Source of the DNA: Methylorubrum extorquens
Lineage (GTDB): Bacteria; Pseudomonadota; Alphaproteobacteria; Rhizobiales; Beijerinckiaceae
Assembly (NCBI GenBank): GCA_900234795.1
Contig: LT962688.1
Coordinates: forward strand, 1,560,001 to 1,592,000
Direction of reading: 5' to 3'
Length of the DNA: 32,000 bases
Positions 7,800 through 16,565 of the stretch are shown one piece after another; within the stretch, counting starts at the first letter, position 1, and each line of letters begins with the position of its first letter. The notes beneath the pieces are model-generated. The model had not been told where the DNA came from. It did not search any database and saw nothing but the letters and a program-made list of their open reading frames with translations. The position numbers and the translations under genes were made by a program.

Positions 7800-8524
7800 C
7801 CGACGCGATGACGGCCCGTGTGGAAAAGGCCGTCCCGCGCCATCCGCTCTGGGTGCGCCTGACCCATTGGGTGAACACCGGCGCCTTCCTGGCGCTCCTC
7901 GTCAGCGGACTCGCTATCCTGCTCGCGCTGCCCCGGCTGTTCTGGGGCGAGACCGGGGCCAACGACGCTCCGGCCTGGATCGTCCTGCCGCTGCCGGTGA
8001 ACCTCGAACAGACCGGCTGGGGCCGCAATCTCCACTTCCTCGCCGCCTGGATCTTCGTGCTCAACGGCGCGCTCTACGGGCTCGTCGCCCTGGCGAGCGG
8101 GCATTTCTTGCGCCGCCTGACCCCCGAGCGCGACCAGCTCCACCCCCGGCACATCGCGGCCGACATCCGCGCGCATCTCCGGCTCACCGGCTCGGGTGCA
8201 ACTGGCGCACACCGCTATAACGTGCTGCAAAAGCTCGCCTATCTCGCCATCATCCTCGTTCTGGCGCCGGTGATGCTGCTCTCGGGCCTCACCATGTCGC
8301 CCGGCGTCACGGCGGCCTACCCGGAGCTGTTCACCCTGTTCGGCGGCCGGCAATCGGCGCGCACGATCCACTTCCTGTCGGCGGTTCTGTTCGTCGGCTT
8401 CCTCCTCGTCCACGTCTGGCAGGTGCTCGCCAACGGGCCGCTCGACCTGATGCGGGGCATGATCACCGGGCGCTCCGCCCAGCCGAAATCCGGGCCAGCG
8501 CCGTCAGAGGAAGACCCGCGATGA
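7796..8524 (+). CDS. Membrane b-type cytochrome (Ni/Fe-hydrogenase cytochrome b / b561-like family)
   Basis: HPLWVRLTHWVNTGAFLALLVSGL start motif, four hydrophobic helices, and conserved His residues (HW, HF, HR/YN, HFL). Paired with the downstream Moco enzyme. Confidence 0.8.
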   Translation: MTDAMTARVEKAVPRHPLWVRLTHWVNTGAFLALLVSGLAILLALPRLFWGETGANDAPAWIVLPLPVNLEQTGWGRNLHFLAAWIFVLNGALYGLVALASGHFLRRLTPERDQLHPRHIAADIRAHLRLTGSGATGAHRYNVLQKLAYLAIILVLAPVMLLSGLTMSPGVTAAYPELFTLFGGRQSARTIHFLSAVLFVGFLLVHVWQVLANGPLDLMRGMITGRSAQPKSGPAPSEEDPR

Positions 8525-9264
8525 GCGATCTCACCCGCCGCAGGCTGATGCTCGGTTCCTCGGCCCTCGGGATCGGCGGCCTTCTCGGCGGCTGCGAGCT
8601 GATCGAGAGCGGACCGCGCCGGCCGGGCCTCTACGGCTTGAGCGACACCCTGACGCTGACCACCCAGCGCTTCCTCCTGCGCGACCAGCCGCTGGTGCGG
8701 GAGTTCGGGCCGGAGGCGATCTCGGCGGTGTTTCCCACCATCAACACCACCGATCCGGACAACCCCGATTACCGGCACTCGAAGGCGGCCGGGTTCTCCG
8801 ACTGGCGCCTGCCGGTGAGCGGCCTCGTCGAGCGCCCCGCCGCCTTCACGTTGGCCGAACTGAGGGCGATGCCGGCCCGCACCCAGGTGACGCTGCATAG
8901 TTGCGAGCAGGGCTGGTCGGCCATCGGCGGCTGGACCGGCGTGCCGCTGTCCCACGTTCTGGCGAGCGTCGGGCTCAAACCCGAGGCGCGCTTCATCGTG
9001 ATCCGCACGGTCGACGGCTGGTGGGACAGCTACGACCTGTTTGACGCCCTGCACCCGCAGACGATCCTGGCCTACGGCATGAATGGCGGCGACCTGCCCG
9101 TGGCCCATGGCGCGCCGGTGCGCCTGCGGGTCGAGCGCCAGCTCGGCTACAAGTCGCTGAAATACCTCGCCAGCATCGAGGCCACCGACCGGGTGGACGG
9201 GCTCGGCCAGGGCCGGGGCAGCATGGTCTCGGAGATGGGGTTTTCCTGGTACGCGGGGATCTGA
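8521..9264 (+). CDS. Molybdopterin-dependent oxidoreductase (sulfite-oxidase/YedY fold), Tat signal with possible lipobox
   Basis: Twin-arginine motif TRRRLML followed by LLGGC. Also WRLPVSGLVERP, HSCEQGWS (candidate Mo-ligand Cys), and GAPVRLRVERQLGYKSLKYL. Confidence 0.85.
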   Translation: MSDLTRRRLMLGSSALGIGGLLGGCELIESGPRRPGLYGLSDTLTLTTQRFLLRDQPLVREFGPEAISAVFPTINTTDPDNPDYRHSKAAGFSDWRLPVSGLVERPAAFTLAELRAMPARTQVTLHSCEQGWSAIGGWTGVPLSHVLASVGLKPEARFIVIRTVDGWWDSYDLFDALHPQTILAYGMNGGDLPVAHGAPVRLRVERQLGYKSLKYLASIEATDRVDGLGQGRGSMVSEMGFSWYAGI

Positions 9265-12435: not shown

Positions 12436-13302
12436 ATGTCCGATCCCGCCGTCAGCCACCGCCACATCGACCTCCGCGGTCTGCGCCTGCATGTCGCCGA
12501 GGCGGGGCCGGCGGATGGGGTGCCGACGATCCTGCTGCACGGCTTTCCGGAATTCTGGTTCGGCTGGCGGCATCAGATCGGGCCGCTCGCAGGCAGCGGC
12601 CTGCGCCTCCTCATCCCCGATCAGCGCGGCTACGGCCTGAGCGACCGCCCCAAAGGCATCGCCGCCTACCACCTCGACCGGCTCGCCCAGGACGTGATCG
12701 CGCTCGCCGATGCCTGCGGGCTCGCGCGGTTCAACCTCGTCGGGCACGATTGGGGCGGGCTCGTCGCGTTCTGGGTCGCGAGCTTTCACCCCGAGCGGGT
12801 CGAGCGGCTCGCCGCGCTGAACGCCTGCCATCCCGGCGTGTTCGGCCCCTATCTCCGGCGCCATCCGGGGCAGGCCTTGCGCAGCGCCTATGCCGGCTTC
12901 TTCCAACTCCCCCTGCTGCCCGAACGGGTGCTGACGGCGCGGGAGGGCCGCCTGCTGCGGGCCCTGATGCGCCGGTCGAGCGCGCCCGGCAGCTTCACCG
13001 AGGCCGATCTCGATGTCTACGCGCGCGAATGGCTGCGCCCCGGCGCGGTCACCGCGATGCTGAACTGGTATCGGGCGCTCGCTCAGCTGCCCCGCGAGCG
13101 GCACCCGCCGAAGATCGTCGCGCCGACGCTGATCCTGTGGGGCGAGCGCGATCAGGCGCTCCAGACGGGCCTGGCCGAGGCGAGCCTGGACCTGTGCGAG
13201 CGGGGTCGCCTGCAGCGCTTTCCGCAGGCGACCCACTGGGTGCAGCACGACGCGCCGGAGGCGGTCAACGCCGCTCTGATCGACTTTCTGGGACGGTCGT
13301 AG
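12436..13302 (+). CDS. Alpha/beta hydrolase, epoxide-hydrolase-like
   Basis: HGFPEFWFGWRHQI (HGXP oxyanion motif), nucleophile motif GHDWGG, and a C-terminal His in ATHWVQHD. Confidence 0.85.
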   Translation: MSDPAVSHRHIDLRGLRLHVAEAGPADGVPTILLHGFPEFWFGWRHQIGPLAGSGLRLLIPDQRGYGLSDRPKGIAAYHLDRLAQDVIALADACGLARFNLVGHDWGGLVAFWVASFHPERVERLAALNACHPGVFGPYLRRHPGQALRSAYAGFFQLPLLPERVLTAREGRLLRALMRRSSAPGSFTEADLDVYAREWLRPGAVTAMLNWYRALAQLPRERHPPKIVAPTLILWGERDQALQTGLAEASLDLCERGRLQRFPQATHWVQHDAPEAVNAALIDFLGRS

Positions 13303-13316
13303 ACAACCATAAAAGA

Positions 13317-13339
13317 ATGCCGGGGCAGAGCCCCGGCAT
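13317..13339. terminator. Perfect 10-bp stem hairpin ATGCCGGGGC-AGA-GCCCCGGCAT between convergent genes
   Basis: Read directly. A-rich upstream (ATAAAAGA), so a U-tract is available for the minus-strand transcript. Confidence 0.6.
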
Positions 13340-13377
13340 CCCGCCAAAGAGATGTGATCCCTTTGGAAACCCGCTGA

Positions 13378-14517
13378 TCAGCGGCCGCTCATGCCGGCGC
13401 CGCCCTCGGCGCCGCCGCGCGAGCCGGATTGCATCCCGCCGCGCTGCTCGCTGCCGCGGTTGCCGCCGGTGTTGCCCATGCCGCCGCCCTGCTCGGAGGC
13501 GTTGCGGACGCCGCCGCGCTCGTTGCCCTCGCCGCGCATGCCGACATTGCGCGCGCCCTCGCCGCCCCGGCCCTGCTCCATCGAGCGACCGCCGCGTTCA
13601 GCCCCGCGCTCGGCCCCACGCGCCTGATCCGAGGCACGCATCTCGTTGCGCTCGCTGTCGCGGGTCTCGCTGCTGCGGCTGCGCAGATCGGTGCGGGTCT
13701 CCGACCCACGGACCTCGTTGCGCTCGCGGAAGCCCGCATTGACCGTGCCGCCGCGCCGCTCGGTGGTCGAGACGGTGGTGGAGAGGCGACGGTACTCAGG
13801 CGAGCCGTACATGACGCGCTGGCCGCGGATCGTTACGTAGCGGCGCGTCTCGCCGACGCTGACGAGGCGGCGATATTCCGGCGAGCCGTAGATCACGCGC
13901 TGGCCGCGGATGGTGACGTAGCGGCGCGGGCCGGTGCTGCGGCGCTCGGTGACGATCAGGCGGCGATACTCGGGCGAACCGTACACGATCCGTCGGCCGC
14001 CGACGAACACGTACCGACCCTCGCGGCGATAGCCGCCATCGACGGTGGTGGAGCGCACATCGGTGCGGCTGCTGACATGAGTCCGGTCGTGGGTGCGGTC
14101 GTGCGTGCGATCCTGGAACCGGTCGCTCCGCTCGGCGCGGGCGTTGCTGCGGACCGTGTCGCTCCGCTCATCGCGCTCGGCCGTGTCGCGGCCGGCGCGA
14201 CCGCTCATGCCGCGCTCCGAACCGCGCTCGCCGCGCGCCATGTCACCGCGATCCGCCCCGCCCCGGCCGGCTTCGCCGCCGTCCCGGTCGTTCCGGGCGG
14301 CACTGCGCTCACCGCCCATGGCGTTTCCACCCGAGCGCGCCTCGCTGCCCTTGGCACCCATGCCGCCGCGCTCGCCGCCCGACATCCCGGCTTGCCCACC
14401 GGACTGGTCCGCACCGGCCCGCATGCCGCCGCGCTCGGACCCACCGGTCGCGGCGCTTTGAGCGTAGACCGACGTGCTCATCAGCAACGCGGCAAGACCC
14501 ATCGCAATCGTCTTCAT
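13378..14517 (-). CDS. Secreted Arg/Gly/Glu/Ser-rich low-complexity protein with three tandem 21-aa repeats (379 aa)
   Basis: GGAGGA Shine-Dalgarno 6 nt before the ATG. Signal peptide MKTIAMGLAALLMSTSVYA-QS. High GC3 throughout. Central repeats are GRYVFVGGRRIVYGSPEYRRL, RRYVTIRGQRVIYGSPEYRRL and RRYVTIRGQRVMYGSPEYRRL (nt 13783-14019). The flanks are full of GGERGG/RGxERG strings and a DRTHDRTHDRTH mini-repeat. Confidence 0.7.
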   Translation of the reverse strand: MKTIAMGLAALLMSTSVYAQSAATGGSERGGMRAGADQSGGQAGMSGGERGGMGAKGSEARSGGNAMGGERSAARNDRDGGEAGRGGADRGDMARGERGSERGMSGRAGRDTAERDERSDTVRSNARAERSDRFQDRTHDRTHDRTHVSSRTDVRSTTVDGGYRREGRYVFVGGRRIVYGSPEYRRLIVTERRSTGPRRYVTIRGQRVIYGSPEYRRLVSVGETRRYVTIRGQRVMYGSPEYRRLSTTVSTTERRGGTVNAGFRERNEVRGSETRTDLRSRSSETRDSERNEMRASDQARGAERGAERGGRSMEQGRGGEGARNVGMRGEGNERGGVRNASEQGGGMGNTGGNRGSEQRGGMQSGSRGGAEGGAGMSGR

Positions 14518-14547
14518 GGCGTATCCTCCGAAACTTTAGACGCTCGA

Positions 14548-14573
14548 AACGTCGCAAAGGACAAAAGGGTTCT
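14548..14573 (-). promoter_or_regulatory. EcfG (general stress sigma)-like promoter motif AGAAC-N17-CGTT
   Basis: The minus strand reads gcAGAACccttttgtcctttgcgaCGTTtcg, about 30 nt upstream of the repeat-protein ATG. The alphaproteobacterial EcfG consensus is GGAAC-N16-17-CGTT, so there is one mismatch in the -35. Confidence 0.35.
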
Positions 14574-14765
14574 GCGAAAAGATGCCTGATCGGAAAAAGT
14601 CCGATGGGTCGCATGGGGATTGATTTATGTGAACAAGCTTGGCCATTTGACGTGGATGACGTCTTGCGTGTTCTGCGGGCGTCTTCACCGATTGGCTCTG
14701 ATGCCGGGCTCGATCTGCGCATCGACGCAAGCGGCGGCCTGGATCGACCTCTTGGTGCGGCCCGA

Positions 14766-16439
14766 TCAAACCGCCTGCTTGGGCTTAGCCATCCACTCGC
14801 GCCCCTTGAGCATGCCGTGCCAGTAGAGGGGCGGGAGCAGGCGCTCCTTGAGCAGCCACGCGGCCCGGCTCGGCTTCGTGCCGTCGAGGAGCCAGGACGG
14901 GAAGCTGGGAAGAAGCTTGCCGCCATAGCCGAACTCGGCAAGCAGGATCTTGCCGCGCTCGACGGTGAGCGGGCACGAGCCGTAGCCGTCGTAGACGGCA
15001 TCCGGCCCCTCGATGAAGCCCATATCGCGCAGCAGGTTGTGCGCCACCACCGGCGCCTGCTTGCGCGCCGCGGCGGCGGTCTTGGCGTTCGGCGCGCTGC
15101 AAGCGTCGCCCAGCCCGTAGACGTCGGTAAAGCGCTTGTGGCGCAGACTCGCCGGGTCCACCTCGACCCAGCCGCTCGGATCCGCCAGGGGGGATTCCCT
15201 GACGAAATCGGGGGGCTGCTGGGGCGGAACGACATGGATCATGTCGAACCCGGTCTCGAGCGTCGATGGGGTCCCGTCCTCGGCCGTGCGGGTGAACCAC
15301 GCGCGCTTGGCCGAGCCGTCGATGCGCGTGAGGTTGTGACGGAAGTGCAGCTTCGCGTCGTAGCGCCGGACGTACTCCATCAGGGGCGGCACGTATTCCT
15401 TCACGCCGAACAGGCTCGGGGTCGCCGTGAAGAGGTCGATCCCGATCTGCTTCAGGCGGCCCGCGCGCCGCCAATGGTCGGCGGAGAGATACATCGCCTT
15501 CTGCGGGGCGCCCGCGCATTTGATCGGCATGGGGGGCTGGGTGAACACGGCCCGTCCTCCGCCGAGGTTCCGGACCAGCTCCCAGGTATAGGGCGCGAGG
15601 TCGAAGCGGTAGTTCGAGGTGACCCCGTTCCGGCCGAGCGTCTCGACCAGCCCCTTGATGCCGCCCCAGTCGAGCTTGAGTCCGGGGGCAACGACGAGGC
15701 GGTCGTAGCCGATGGACCGGCCGTCCTCCAGCATCACGGCCTTCCTCTGGGGCTCGAAGGCGACAACGGCGGCCTTGATCCACGTCACGCCGTCCGGGAT
15801 CAGGGACGCCATGGTCCGGGCGGTCTCCGCCGGGTCGAACACGCCGGCGCCCACCAGCGTCCAGCCGGGCTGGTAGTAGTGGATGTCGGCCGGGTCTATC
15901 ACGGCGACCTCCAGGTCGGGCTTGCGCGCCTTCAGGCTTGAGGCCGCCGCGAGGCCGGCCGCGCCGCCGCCGACGATGAGAACCGCGAACCGTTGCTCGG
16001 TTCCCAAAGGCGCCGCGCCAGCCTGCGCCACCATCCGGGGCGCGGCGCCTTTCAGGTCGTAGCCCGCGGCCTTCGTGGCAGCCAGGATCTCCGCCACGGC
16101 GCGGCCGCGCCGTGCCTCGGCGAGCGACCATAGCGTCGCCGAGCGCGTGCCGGTGCCGCAATAGGCAAGGGTCGGCTTCGGCAGGGTGTCCGCCGCCGCC
16201 TCGAAGGCCGCGACATCCGCGTCGGTGATACGGCCCGACGTGACCGGCAGGTCGCGGGCGACGAGGTCGCCCTCCCCGGCCCGCCGCTCGATCTCACGAA
16301 AATTCGGCTGGTCGGGGGCCTCGCCGTCGGGGCGGTTGCAGAGGATCGACCGGAACCCGGCGGACGCGACCGCCGGGCTGTCGTCAGGCCGGATCTGCGG
16401 TGCGACGCCCAAGTCGCGCGTGATGTGATGGACGTCCAC
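14766..16439 (-). CDS. sqr: Fusion protein: N-terminal DUF442 (BLH-type sulfurtransferase/phosphatase-like) domain plus type II sulfide:quinone oxidoreductase
   Basis: The N-terminus (VAPQIRPDD...GFRSILCNRPDGEAPDQP...LAYCGTGTRS) matches DUF442. It is followed by the FAD motif VLIVGGGAAGLAAA and SQRDL-like motifs PIKCAGAPQKAMYL, GDACSAPNAKTAAA and GYGSCPLT. GTG start with GGAG 6 nt upstream. Confidence 0.88.
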   Translation of the reverse strand: MDVHHITRDLGVAPQIRPDDSPAVASAGFRSILCNRPDGEAPDQPNFREIERRAGEGDLVARDLPVTSGRITDADVAAFEAAADTLPKPTLAYCGTGTRSATLWSLAEARRGRAVAEILAATKAAGYDLKGAAPRMVAQAGAAPLGTEQRFAVLIVGGGAAGLAAASSLKARKPDLEVAVIDPADIHYYQPGWTLVGAGVFDPAETARTMASLIPDGVTWIKAAVVAFEPQRKAVMLEDGRSIGYDRLVVAPGLKLDWGGIKGLVETLGRNGVTSNYRFDLAPYTWELVRNLGGGRAVFTQPPMPIKCAGAPQKAMYLSADHWRRAGRLKQIGIDLFTATPSLFGVKEYVPPLMEYVRRYDAKLHFRHNLTRIDGSAKRAWFTRTAEDGTPSTLETGFDMIHVVPPQQPPDFVRESPLADPSGWVEVDPASLRHKRFTDVYGLGDACSAPNAKTAAAARKQAPVVAHNLLRDMGFIEGPDAVYDGYGSCPLTVERGKILLAEFGYGGKLLPSFPSWLLDGTKPSRAAWLLKERLLPPLYWHGMLKGREWMAKPKQAV

Positions 16440-16455
16440 CGACGGCTCCGTCGCT

Positions 16456-16471
16456 ATATAAAATTACATAT
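16456..16471. promoter_or_regulatory. Imperfect AT-rich palindrome ATATAAAATTACATAT in the sqr/prx divergent region (candidate ArsR/BigR-type operator)
   Basis: 12 of 16 positions are self-complementary. It sits in the only AT-rich patch of the cluster, adjacent to the TTGACT and TTGACA hexamers. Confidence 0.3.
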
Positions 16472-16565
16472 TGACTTAATCACCCGGAGCATATCGAATA
16501 TTGACAGAGGTACAATACCGGCACTACTTGCCTCTGTGCCGGCGAAAAGCCAGGAGCATCGATAT

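Follow-up and report, generated by a model that had tools for sequence, protein, structure and literature searches.

A gene of Methylorubrum extorquens with a predicted general-stress promoter encodes a putative exported, largely disordered protein built around a conserved basic repeat core

Results

Gene structure and coding frame

The window, to which all positions given below refer, is the whole stretch of 32,000 nucleotides that was analysed. On its minus strand, an ORF located at 13378..14517 encodes a product of 379 residues followed by a stop codon. Its GC contents at the three codon positions (0.71/0.63/0.88) resemble those of the flanking real genes, for which GC3 values of 0.90 and 0.91 were obtained. 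When the orthologous loci were compared, the minus-strand frame was found to be open in 78 of 78 orthologs, and dN/dS remained below 1 in all parts of the protein: about 0.1 in the core, approximately 0.05-0.1 in the signal peptide and 0.2-0.5 in the flanks. In addition, the gene is called by gene callers in 17 public contigs. A Shine-Dalgarno sequence, GGAGGA (14524..14529, minus strand), lies 6 nt 5' of the ATG, and its GGAG is conserved in the Methylorubrum upstream alignment. At the other end, an intrinsic terminator (13314..13342, minus strand), made of a 13-bp stem with 9 GC pairs and a T-rich tail, is found 36 nt past the stop codon. On account of its GC3 of 0.88, of dN/dS values below 1 and of its own ribosome-binding site and terminator, it was concluded that the minus-strand ORF is the real coding frame.

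The preliminary description had envisaged that the opposite-strand ORF (13429-14589, plus strand) could be the expressed product instead. This frame is indeed free of stops in the window and in 62/78 orthologs. However, it is interrupted in the other 16, whereas the sense frame is always open, and its codon-position GC (GC1 0.86, GC3 0.69) is that of a high-GC shadow, which is what this ORF is. Furthermore, the sense frame combines a dN/dS well below 1 with a conserved signal peptide, a Shine-Dalgarno sequence, a promoter and a terminator. The probability that the true product is encoded on the plus strand, or that the region is non-coding, is negligible. With its predicted promoter, ribosome-binding site and terminator, the gene appears to form, alone, a complete transcription unit. 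Searches of the window for Rfam families and for tRNAs gave no matches.

Signal peptide and disordered flanks

The composition of the whole protein is dominated by Gly (19.8%), Arg (18.5%), Ser (9.5%) and Glu (8.4%). It contains no Trp, and Cys is found neither in the window protein nor in any of 77 orthologs. Residues 1-19 (14461..14517, minus strand), MKTIAMGLAALLMSTSVYA followed by Q, have the n/h/c layout of a Sec-type signal peptide, in which MKT, IAMGLAALLMSTS and VYA succeed one another and V-Y-A occupies positions -3 to -1 before the Gln. By rule-based inspection, the features of a Sec (type I) signal are present: a basic n-region, a hydrophobic h-region, small residues at -3 and -1, no lipobox Cys and no twin-Arg. 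As the N-terminus is devoid of Cys, there is no lipobox. The pattern GLAALL..STS.YAQ is almost invariant among the orthologs, so that the signal peptide first noticed in the single sequence has been corroborated both by its layout and by its near-invariance. The protein had also been called secreted; this holds as far as a conserved predicted Sec-type export signal is concerned, but not for release beyond that step, for which neither a lipobox nor an anchor nor dedicated secretion genes were found. For the same reasons, the periplasm would be the default destination of the exported protein. Readings of the product as a harpin, a lipoprotein, a Tat substrate or an autotransporter were ruled out on sequence features.

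The mature protein is predicted to begin with an N-terminal disordered flank (residues 20-149; 14071..14460, minus strand), rich in Gly, Arg, Asp, Glu, Ala, Ser and Met, which is characterized by a FoldIndex of -0.23, a fraction of charged residues (FCR) of 0.35, a net charge per residue (NCPR) of +0.015 and a kappa value of 0.05. Its dN/dS of 0.2-0.5 is accompanied by many indels. Within it, DRTH is repeated three times (residues 136-147; 14077-14112, minus strand), and Tandem Repeats Finder detected a period of 12 at 14084-14109 in this region. The C-terminal disordered flank (residues 263-379; 13381..13731, minus strand) shows similar values (FoldIndex -0.28, NCPR +0.034, kappa 0.06) and carries a semi-conserved GG(V/I)RNAS motif, recognized in the alignments, at residues 335-341 (13495-13515, minus strand). 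In the AlphaFold2 model, residues 18-165 and 253-376 have pLDDT below 50 and no secondary structure. The disordered, Cys-free flanks of the preliminary description were thus borne out by FoldIndex and by AlphaFold2.

Gly reaches 24% in the flanks, and the GRAVY value is -1.31 for the mature protein, with a median of -1.29 over 77 orthologs. These values lie on the hydrophilin side of the compositional limits (Gly >6%, GRAVY < -1), hydrophilin being the name of a compositional class and not of a function. Met is the sole hydrophobic residue kept in the flanks, where it amounts to 3.7% when the 77 orthologs are pooled, against 0.4% for Leu, 0.7% for Ile and 0.9% for Phe. It occurs mostly in a GGM context and represents 4.2% of the whole window protein.

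A conserved basic repeat core

Between the two flanks lies a basic core conserved in 77 orthologs (residues 150-262; 13732..14070, minus strand). It consists of a lead-in (RTDVRS..GG.RREGR), three repeat units and a tail (ERRGGTVNAGF). The units are R1, GRYVFVGGRRIVYGSPEYRRL (residues 167-187; 13957..14019), R2, RRYVTIRGQRVIYGSPEYRRL (residues 198-218; 13864..13926), and R3, RRYVTIRGQRVMYGSPEYRRL (residues 225-245; 13783..13845), all on the minus strand; R1 and R2 are each predicted to form a beta-hairpin followed by a helix. The three 21-residue units announced as tandem repeats are therefore present, but they do not follow one another head to tail: linkers of 10 and 6 residues separate them, giving periods of 31 and 27 residues. 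R2 and R3 differ at 8 of 63 nucleotides. Because the differing codons are mostly synonymous (7), these units are old and kept by selection at the protein level. A comparison of copy number across Methylobacterium and Methylorubrum gave three or four units per ortholog, depending on the species.

The core is the only strongly basic part of the protein (pI 11.4, NCPR +0.14 to +0.18), with a net charge of +13 for the repeat block and +16 for the whole core region. Among 28 diverse core sequences, 35 columns are invariant, in keeping with the low dN/dS reported above (about 0.1). AlphaFold2 modelled a hairpin plus helix in each unit, at a pLDDT of 60-80 and from shallow alignments (7 and 9 rows; overall range 49-80). 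A Foldseek search of the core model against the PDB found nothing significant (best E = 1.2, probability 0.06), the weak top matches being zinc-finger arrays, and a profile search of PDB sequences gave two chance-level matches only (E = 0.74 and 0.96).

Distribution and genomic context

Orthologs were identified in at least 80 Methylobacterium/Methylorubrum species and essentially nowhere else, and the gene appears essentially restricted to Methylobacterium and its closest relatives. An exhaustive search with the repeat-core profile, covering 1.84 billion representative proteins at a cut-off of E <= 0.001, yielded 11 matches, six of which contain recognizable family units (P0002, P0005, P0006, P0008, P0009 and P0010). 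P0011, P0012, P0013, P0014 and P0015 were rejected as relatives, being unrelated repetitive proteins by sequence inspection; a WD40-like array and a eukaryote-like repeat are among these five. No family was found for the window protein in Pfam-A and NCBIfam at E <= 10, whether among the known stress families (LEA, KGG, CsbD, Asr, HdeA) or any other profile. Likewise, the homologs P0002 and P0005 had no Pfam match at E <= 0.1, and five relatives had none in NCBIfam at E <= 1. The initial remark that no family could be recognized was thus upheld in Pfam, NCBIfam, PDB and fold comparisons. The protein, though of a general kind already known, represents a family that is new and restricted to its lineage.

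The gene occurs in two unrelated genomic contexts, and synteny is not conserved across the genus. In 51 loci it is located downstream of argD-argF-hslO, 171 nt from hslO, while in Methylorubrum it lies beside an alpha/beta hydrolase and a FecCD-type ABC transporter. The comparison of synteny proposed at the outset therefore revealed no genus-wide arrangement, and the promoter motif travels with the gene. The neighbourhood in the window includes a peroxiredoxin and a cytochrome bd oxidase, and no ligand is suggested by the gene neighbourhood. According to the locus titles, the genus is associated with plant surfaces.

A predicted general-stress promoter

Upstream of the gene, the minus strand carries AGAAC-N17-CGTT at 14573-14548, the ATG being 30 nt further on. 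The putative -35 element AGAAC (14569..14573), whose core GAAC occupies 14572-14569, is of the ECF/sigma-EcfG type as judged by ortholog conservation and consensus. The putative -10 element CGTT (14548..14551), 17 nt past GAAC, is kept in 77/77 orthologs. The sigma-EcfG consensus of M. extorquens AM1 is GAAC-N16,17-(C/G)GTT (PMC4814048). The EcfG/PhyR-type motif of the preliminary description is thus real and located at a sensible distance, but it had been counted as one mismatch away from the consensus and is in fact an exact match to the M. extorquens form.

In the window alone, four motif matches were found against 1.5 expected, which is not significant, so that the significance of the motif rests on the orthologs. 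The strict GAAC motif is present at the homologous position in 71/77 of them, the other 6 having AAAC, compared with 8/664 other genes of the same loci (1.2%). The spacer varies in sequence between orthologs, and one clade has N16; in the clade that diverges most, the canonical GGAAC-N16-CGTT is found. In the more distant relative P0005, AAAC-N16-CGTT is found 27 nt before the ATG. Furthermore, the motif accompanies the gene in both genomic contexts. The proposal of a general-stress-type promoter is thereby strongly supported by phylogenetic footprinting, and it is apparently the general stress response that turns the gene on. A sigma-70 promoter scan of 13200-14900 returned zero sites.

AAC in the -35 and CGT in the -10 occur in the promoters of many ECF sigma groups, several of which have GAAC/CGTT-like elements in common. 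Many ECF sigmas are encoded in Methylobacterium genomes, so another ECF sigma, for instance one devoted to envelope stress, might read GAAC-N17-CGTT and place the gene in an envelope-stress regulon rather than in the general stress response. The link between motif and regulon is also loose, since only 61% of the genes assigned to EcfG1, one of six EcfG paralogues described, carried the motif (PMC4814048). However, the full match, including the 16/17 spacing and CGTT, is the defining EcfG signature in M. extorquens (PMC4814048), and the canonical form is found in the most divergent clade. A different ECF sigma is accordingly considered rather unlikely, and EcfG specifically is the probable sigma factor. 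It can be held with high confidence that the product is a genuine protein, exported and disordered, and that its gene has a conserved promoter of the ECF type.

A second conserved element, ATGGCCAAGCTT, is located at 14635..14646 (minus strand), some 129 nt ahead of the ATG; on its downstream side, about 70 nt separate it from the -35. CAAGCT/AGCTTG occurs within -150..-95 in 64/77 orthologs against 19/659 other genes, and CCAAGCT in 50/77 against 3/659; the element is inverted in one clade. Its conservation points to a possible additional regulation of the gene. Three readings of this element each met with an objection: as a sigma-54 promoter, the GG-GC spacing is one off; as a sigma-32 promoter (CTTGTT-N13-CCCCATGC in the window), the -10 is not conserved in orthologs; as the start of a small upstream ORF, the ATG reads ACG in most orthologs.

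Discussion

Comparison with known systems

Hydrophilins and LEA-like bacterial general stress proteins include GsiB of Bacillus subtilis and YciG of Escherichia coli. The present protein shares with this class a Gly content above 6%, a hydropathy below -1, a repetitive and disordered nature and a stress-sigma promoter. Proteins of the GsiB/YciG type reside in the cytoplasm and are recognized by Pfam families, among them KGG and LEA, whereas the present protein is predicted to be exported, is rich in Arg rather than Lys and has no family match. The acid-shock protein Asr of E. coli is Sec-exported, stress-induced, basic and disordered, and acts in the periplasm. The present protein is likewise basic and disordered, and is predicted to be Sec-exported and stress-induced. 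Asr is small, rich in Lys, Ala and His, acid-specific and devoid of a conserved repeat core; no sequence similarity to it was found (no Pfam match).

As in the sigma-EcfG (ECF15) general stress regulons of Alphaproteobacteria, defined in M. extorquens AM1 (PMC4814048), GAAC-N16,17-(C/G)GTT lies just upstream of a monocistronic stress-type gene. Small exported proteins without an assigned function are numerous in regulons of this type. The present gene is, however, a candidate member by motif, and its product has no relatives in other alphaproteobacterial genera. MrpX of Azospira suillum is a periplasmic stress protectant with a signal peptide, a natively unfolded, charge-rich sequence and an ECF-sigma promoter (PMC4436054), all of which have their counterparts, as observed or predicted features, in the present protein. 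MrpX differs in that it is small, consists of Met to about 20%, is under the control of SigF and is encoded together with yedYZ (msrPQ) (PMC4436054), whereas the present protein has 379 residues, about 4% Met and a conserved, folded-looking repeat core, and no molybdopterin reductase pair (msrPQ) is adjacent in either conserved context.

The richness in Gly and Arg had suggested an analogy with eukaryotic RGG/RG regions, which bind polyanions and undergo phase separation. With 20 RG and 9 RGG (smallest gap 5 residues) and four tri-RG clusters, the protein shares this richness. However, no di-RGG or tri-RGG box with a spacing of 4 or less is present in the protein, and Arg is offset by Glu and Asp (an acidic residue precedes RG in 8/20 cases), so that the net charge is about zero and kappa is low. 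Since the flanks are near-neutral and well-mixed polyampholytes (NCPR +0.015 and +0.034, kappa about 0.05-0.06), classic RGG-type polyanion binding is argued against, and the analogy is weak. RNA, moreover, would be unavailable as a ligand to an extracytoplasmic protein. The resemblance of the core to C2H2 zinc fingers concerns topology only (a beta-hairpin then a short helix per unit, as beads on a string): the units have no Cys/His ligands, and the Foldseek matches to such arrays were not significant.

Proposed function and alternatives

Our best overall explanation, in which belief and doubt are about evenly balanced, is that the protein is induced by stress and acts as a hydrophilin of the envelope, where its basic repeat core would attach it to an anionic polymer. 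According to this scheme, an RNA polymerase carrying an ECF sigma, most likely EcfG freed via the PhyR-NepR partner switch, would initiate about 6-9 nt downstream of the CGTT, and the protein would be synthesized in response to desiccation, osmotic stress, ethanol, heat or starvation. The precursor is predicted to be exported by the Sec pathway and cleaved after VYA19. The mature protein (36-39 kDa, pI about 11) would then remain in the periplasm or cell envelope, because no lipobox, anchor or dedicated secretion system is available to it. More speculatively, the core, with its three or four hairpin-helix units, may dock on LPS, peptidoglycan or exopolysaccharide, while the flanks of about 120-130 residues, rich in Gly, Arg and acidic residues and well mixed in charge, may form expanded, highly hydrated chains. 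Like a hydrophilin or a molecular shield, these chains would retain water and protect components of the envelope when water is lost. This protective mechanism, a hydrophilin with an anchor, is put forward tentatively, with distinctly less than even confidence.

The same strongly basic core, with its pI of 11.4 and Arg-rich hairpin-helix units, could instead belong to a structural protein of the matrix or cell surface, cross-linking acidic exopolysaccharide or extracellular DNA and helping aggregation or biofilm formation on leaves. This corresponds to the idea of polyanion binding raised in the preliminary description. Three units in some species and four in others would fit, as in many surface repeat proteins, and so would the plant-surface habitat of the genus. 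However, no outer-membrane translocation system, anchor or sorting signal was found, nor any secretion genes nearby; the near-neutral, well-mixed flanks would on their own be poor binders of polyanions and poor coacervators, and closely spaced RGG boxes are missing. A matrix role is therefore judged unlikely. Still further from the mark, in all likelihood, is a functional-amyloid-like fibre subunit comparable to CsgA or FapC, whose strand-turn-strand repeats would stack as extracellular cross-beta fibres. Behind a Sec signal peptide, three to four imperfect, hairpin-forming repeats of about 21 residues with variable linkers do recall such subunits, but the units are highly positive, include a predicted helix and show no Gln/Asn ladder. 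No csgEFG- or fapF-like genes occur in any of the 80 loci, whose conserved neighbour families contain no dedicated secretion or nucleator genes, and there is no Pfam curlin or Fap match; this reading is highly improbable.

The retention of Met in the flanks, mostly as GGM, would be explained if the protein served as a periplasmic oxidant sink, its exposed Met residues being sacrificially oxidised by hypochlorite or reactive oxygen species before a periplasmic methionine sulfoxide reductase reduces them again, as in the MrpX/MsrP system. Apart from the precedent of MrpX (PMC4436054), the fact that in 51 species the gene follows, at a distance of 171 nt, hslO, the gene for the redox-activated chaperone Hsp33, and the nearby peroxiredoxin and cytochrome bd oxidase genes in the window, are compatible with such a role. 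Nevertheless, Met makes up about 4% of the protein, compared with 20% of MrpX, the positions of single Met residues are poorly kept among orthologs, neither genomic context contains adjacent msrPQ-like genes, the promoter is of the EcfG and not of the SigF type, and the conserved basic repeat core would be left unexplained. We regard this possibility as quite unlikely.

Significance

The architecture of the protein, in which two rapidly evolving, disordered polyampholyte arms flank a conserved basic repeat core, is unusual. Few disordered stress proteins that act outside the cytoplasm are known from bacteria, and the present one would enlarge this set by a member that is exported and Arg-rich. 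If it were merely another hydrophilic stress protein with a mild phenotype, its interest would be local only. Methylobacterium and Methylorubrum are dominant leaf-surface bacteria, in which PhyR and the general stress response are essential for epiphytic fitness. The effectors of desiccation and envelope protection in these bacteria are mostly unknown, and the present gene, universally conserved, lineage-specific and equipped with its own predicted promoter, is a candidate effector.

A bolder version of the proposal, to which we give little credence at this stage, is that the family represents a type of extracytoplasmic protectant, peculiar to the genus, that has so far not been described from bacteria. 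Metal-free, Arg-rich beta-beta-alpha repeats would pin the protein to envelope polyanions, and the Gly/Arg/Met polyampholyte flanks would turn reversibly, on drying, into a gel or condensate located in the periplasm or at the surface and possibly tunable by redox state. If true, the protein would be an exported bacterial counterpart of the CAHS proteins of tardigrades or the LEA proteins of plants, and could partly account for the persistence of Methylobacterium on dry, UV-exposed leaves.

Results

The 379-aa, putatively exported Gly/Arg-rich protein is encoded on the minus strand of the window (ORF 13378..14517), by a frame whose GC content by codon position is 0.71/0.63/0.88. Its third-position value is similar to those of the flanking alpha/beta hydrolase (0.90) and 557-aa oxidoreductase (0.91) genes. 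A Shine-Dalgarno sequence, GGAGGA, is found on the same strand 6 nt 5' of the ATG, and an intrinsic terminator with a 13-bp stem (13342..13314, minus strand) is located 36 nt 3' of the stop codon. The sense frame was open in 78/78 usable orthologs, and the antisense frame was disrupted in 16 of them. In comparisons with close relatives, the repeat core had a dN/dS of about 0.1, the signal peptide one of 0.05-0.1 and the flanks, where many indels have also accumulated, one of 0.2-0.5. The protein's rate of evolution exceeds that of its neighbours: in the comparison with Methylobacterium sp. Leaf123, identity was 88% for the protein and 95% for the neighbours. Public gene callers predicted the identical product on 17 contigs. 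The opposite-strand ORF (13429-14589; GC1 0.86, GC3 0.69), which could have been the expressed product, is a typical high-GC shadow ORF and was rejected because frame conservation, dN/dS and the gene-caller results all favour the sense frame. These data established the minus-strand frame as a real, conserved and monocistronic gene.

The protein combines a signal for export with disordered hydrophilic flanks around a conserved, basic repeat core. Judged by sequence rules, its signal peptide is of the Sec type, with n, h and c regions and V-Y-A at -3 to -1; the pattern M(K/R)xxxxGLAALLxSTS(V/A)YAQ is near-invariant genus-wide. No consistent twin-arginine motif was found in the signal peptides of the orthologs, and all 77 orthologs are free of Cys and therefore lack a lipobox. 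The composition given in the preliminary description was correct: G and R account for 19.8% and 18.5% of the residues, and Cys and Trp are absent.

In the flanks (aa 20-149 and 263-379), the composition pooled over orthologs is G 24%, R 18%, A 10.5%, D+E 15%, M 3.7%, L 0.4% and I 0.7%. Those of the window protein show FoldIndex values of -0.23 and -0.28, a fraction of charged residues of 0.34-0.35, a net charge per residue of +0.015 and +0.034 and a kappa of 0.05-0.06; they are strong but well-mixed polyampholytes. AlphaFold2 likewise predicted disorder, with pLDDT <50 and no secondary structure at aa 18-165 and 253-376. Micro-repeats in the flanks vary by species, such as the threefold DRTH of the window protein (aa 136-147) and GETNR in P0001. 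The whole mature protein satisfies the hydrophilin criteria (GRAVY -1.31; median of 77 orthologs, -1.29).

Strong conservation is confined to the core, where 35 columns are invariant among 28 diverse sequences. Its three 21-aa units, R1, R2 and R3, occupy aa 167-187, 198-218 and 225-245; they had been described as tandem repeats, but linkers of 10 and 6 aa intervene. R2 and R3 differ at 8/63 nt, and seven of the differing codons are synonymous, which argues that the units are old and kept by protein-level selection rather than derived from a recent duplication. Across species, the copy number varies: 53 have three units and 24 have four. The core has a pI of 11.4 and a net charge of +13 across the repeats (+16 across aa 150-262). 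AlphaFold2 predicted three hairpin-plus-helix units in the core (pLDDT 60-80), each laid out as YVxI, a turn, RVxY and a helical PEYRRL.

This family is uncharacterised and confined to the Methylobacterium/Methylorubrum lineage. When one genome per GTDB species was scanned, 91 matching stretches were obtained, the best 80 of which all belonged to Methylobacterium, Methylorubrum or MAGs of the same lineage. No match was obtained for the window protein in Pfam-A and NCBIfam (E <= 10), for homologs P0002 and P0005 in Pfam (E <= 0.1) or for five relatives in NCBIfam (E <= 1), and no relative was found among PDB sequences. Foldseek returned no significant match (best E = 1.2); the top weak matches, C2H2 zinc-finger arrays, share only a beta-beta-alpha topology with the core units. 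An exhaustive search of 1.84 billion representative proteins with the core profile yielded 11 matches at E <= 0.001, of which six bear recognisable family units; the other five proved on inspection to be unrelated repetitive proteins. One unrelated-looking protein from this search, the 750-aa P0014, contains repeats (SYITIDGRDVFYESDDxKRL) resembling the unit RYVTIRGQRVIYGSPEYRRL (E = 2e-6, 4 stretches), a likeness that could reflect distant homology or convergence on a hairpin-helix motif.

Upstream of the gene, AGAAC-N17-CGTT (14573-14548, minus strand) lies 30 nt 5' of the ATG. The motif, previously described as carrying one mismatch, matches perfectly the EcfG consensus derived experimentally in M. 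extorquens AM1, GAAC-N16,17-(C/G)GTT (PMC4814048). Since the motif count in the window alone was not significant (4 observed, 1.5 expected), support comes from the ortholog comparison. GAAC-N16/17-CGTT is present in 71/77 orthologs, ending 30-34 nt before the ATG (45 or 58-60 nt in two clades), and the other six carry AAAC-N17-CGTT at the same place; by comparison, the motif was found no more than 110 nt from the gene start in only 8/664 other genes at these loci. CGTT never varies, in contrast to the diverging spacer and adjacent sequence. The most distant clade carries the canonical GGAAC-N16-CGTT, and in a more distant relative, from a metagenomic contig, AAAC-N16-CGTT is placed 27 nt 5' of the ATG. 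These findings strongly support a functional promoter of the ECF type, which most probably depends on EcfG.

A second conserved element, A(T/C)GGCCAAGCTT, is located at 14646-14635 (minus strand), within the stretch 14629-14646 and some 70 nt 5' of the EcfG-type -35. Its core was found at -150 to -95 in 64/77 orthologs versus 19/659 background genes, and CCAAGCT in 50/77 versus 3/659. The element occurs in most orthologs and in both genomic contexts; its inversion in one clade suggests that it is half of a palindrome. It could serve as a binding site for a transcription factor or belong to a second promoter. It implies a regulatory input additional to EcfG. About 25 Methylobacterium species (loci within L018-L062) have a second ECF-like motif, gcGAAACgc-N-tattCGTTgcg (AAAC-N17-CGTT), 3' of this element and 5' of the main promoter, at roughly -110 to -85 relative to the ATG; it occurs in many Methylobacterium sensu stricto species and is absent in the window.

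The gene was found in two unrelated neighbourhoods, and the promoter stays with it in both. In 51/80 loci (within L011-L080) it lies 171 nt 3' of argD-argF-hslO, the last encoding the Hsp33 redox chaperone, and is followed by genes for GNAT, an M20 peptidase, ApaG and dCTP deaminase. In Methylorubrum, the window's lineage, it has been relocated beside the alpha/beta hydrolase and a FecCD-type ABC transporter.

Other features of the window were also recorded. A redox/sulfide-type cluster upstream of the gene (14766-22025) comprises a BLH phosphatase-like/pyridine-nucleotide-disulfide oxidoreductase fusion, a 1-Cys peroxiredoxin, a metallo-beta-lactamase-fold gene, ArsR and cytochrome bd subunits I and II. 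It was absent within 6 kb upstream of every ortholog (L001-L080), so its junction with the gene is specific to the lineage of the window strain. A periplasmic acid-stress chaperone of the HdeA/HdeB family, which bears a signal peptide (26004-26363, minus strand), lies in a low-GC island (0.57 versus about 0.70), adjoining an IS3-family transposase pair (23851-25259, minus) and a DegP-like protease (27028-28518, minus); another GAAC-N16-CGTT match (26774-26797, minus) is found about 410 nt 5' of the hdeA-like start. The low-complexity stretch 25224-25895, which could encode another exported low-complexity protein, has two candidate frames: one on the plus strand with long runs of poly-Gly, and one on the minus strand (25320-25814) in which a signal-peptide-like MKRWIIITAALATSTVTLAQ precedes a region rich in Ala, Pro and Ser.

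Discussion

The preliminary observation was thus confirmed, apart from the arrangement of the repeats and the promoter match, and its interpretation was supported in part. The gene would be induced by stress through EcfG, and its precursor exported by Sec and cleaved after A19, placing the mature protein in the periplasm or envelope. There, the basic core might dock onto an anionic envelope polymer, and the polyampholyte arms might serve as hydrated shields when water is lost.

The proposed analogy with nucleic-acid-binding, phase-separating RGG regions is weakened because 8 of the 20 RG pairs follow an acidic residue, no RGG boxes with spacing <=4 were found in the protein, and kappa is low, which predicts expanded, non-self-associating flank chains. 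The protein might alternatively serve as an oxidant sink. Met is selectively retained among the hydrophobic residues of the flanks, and the methionine-rich periplasmic peptide MrpX of Azospira suillum (PMC4436054) offers a precedent; however, Met reaches only about 4% and the gene is not linked to msrPQ. A 247-aa protein with a sulfite-oxidase-type molybdopterin domain (Oxidored_molyb; 8521-9264, plus strand) is encoded about 4 kb away, not adjacent to the gene. MsrP-type reductases belong to the same fold family. The oxidant sink was kept as a rival to the shielding role.

The protein represents a new lineage-restricted family of a known general kind, namely stress-sigma-driven, exported, disordered protective proteins. 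[quoted passage not shown]
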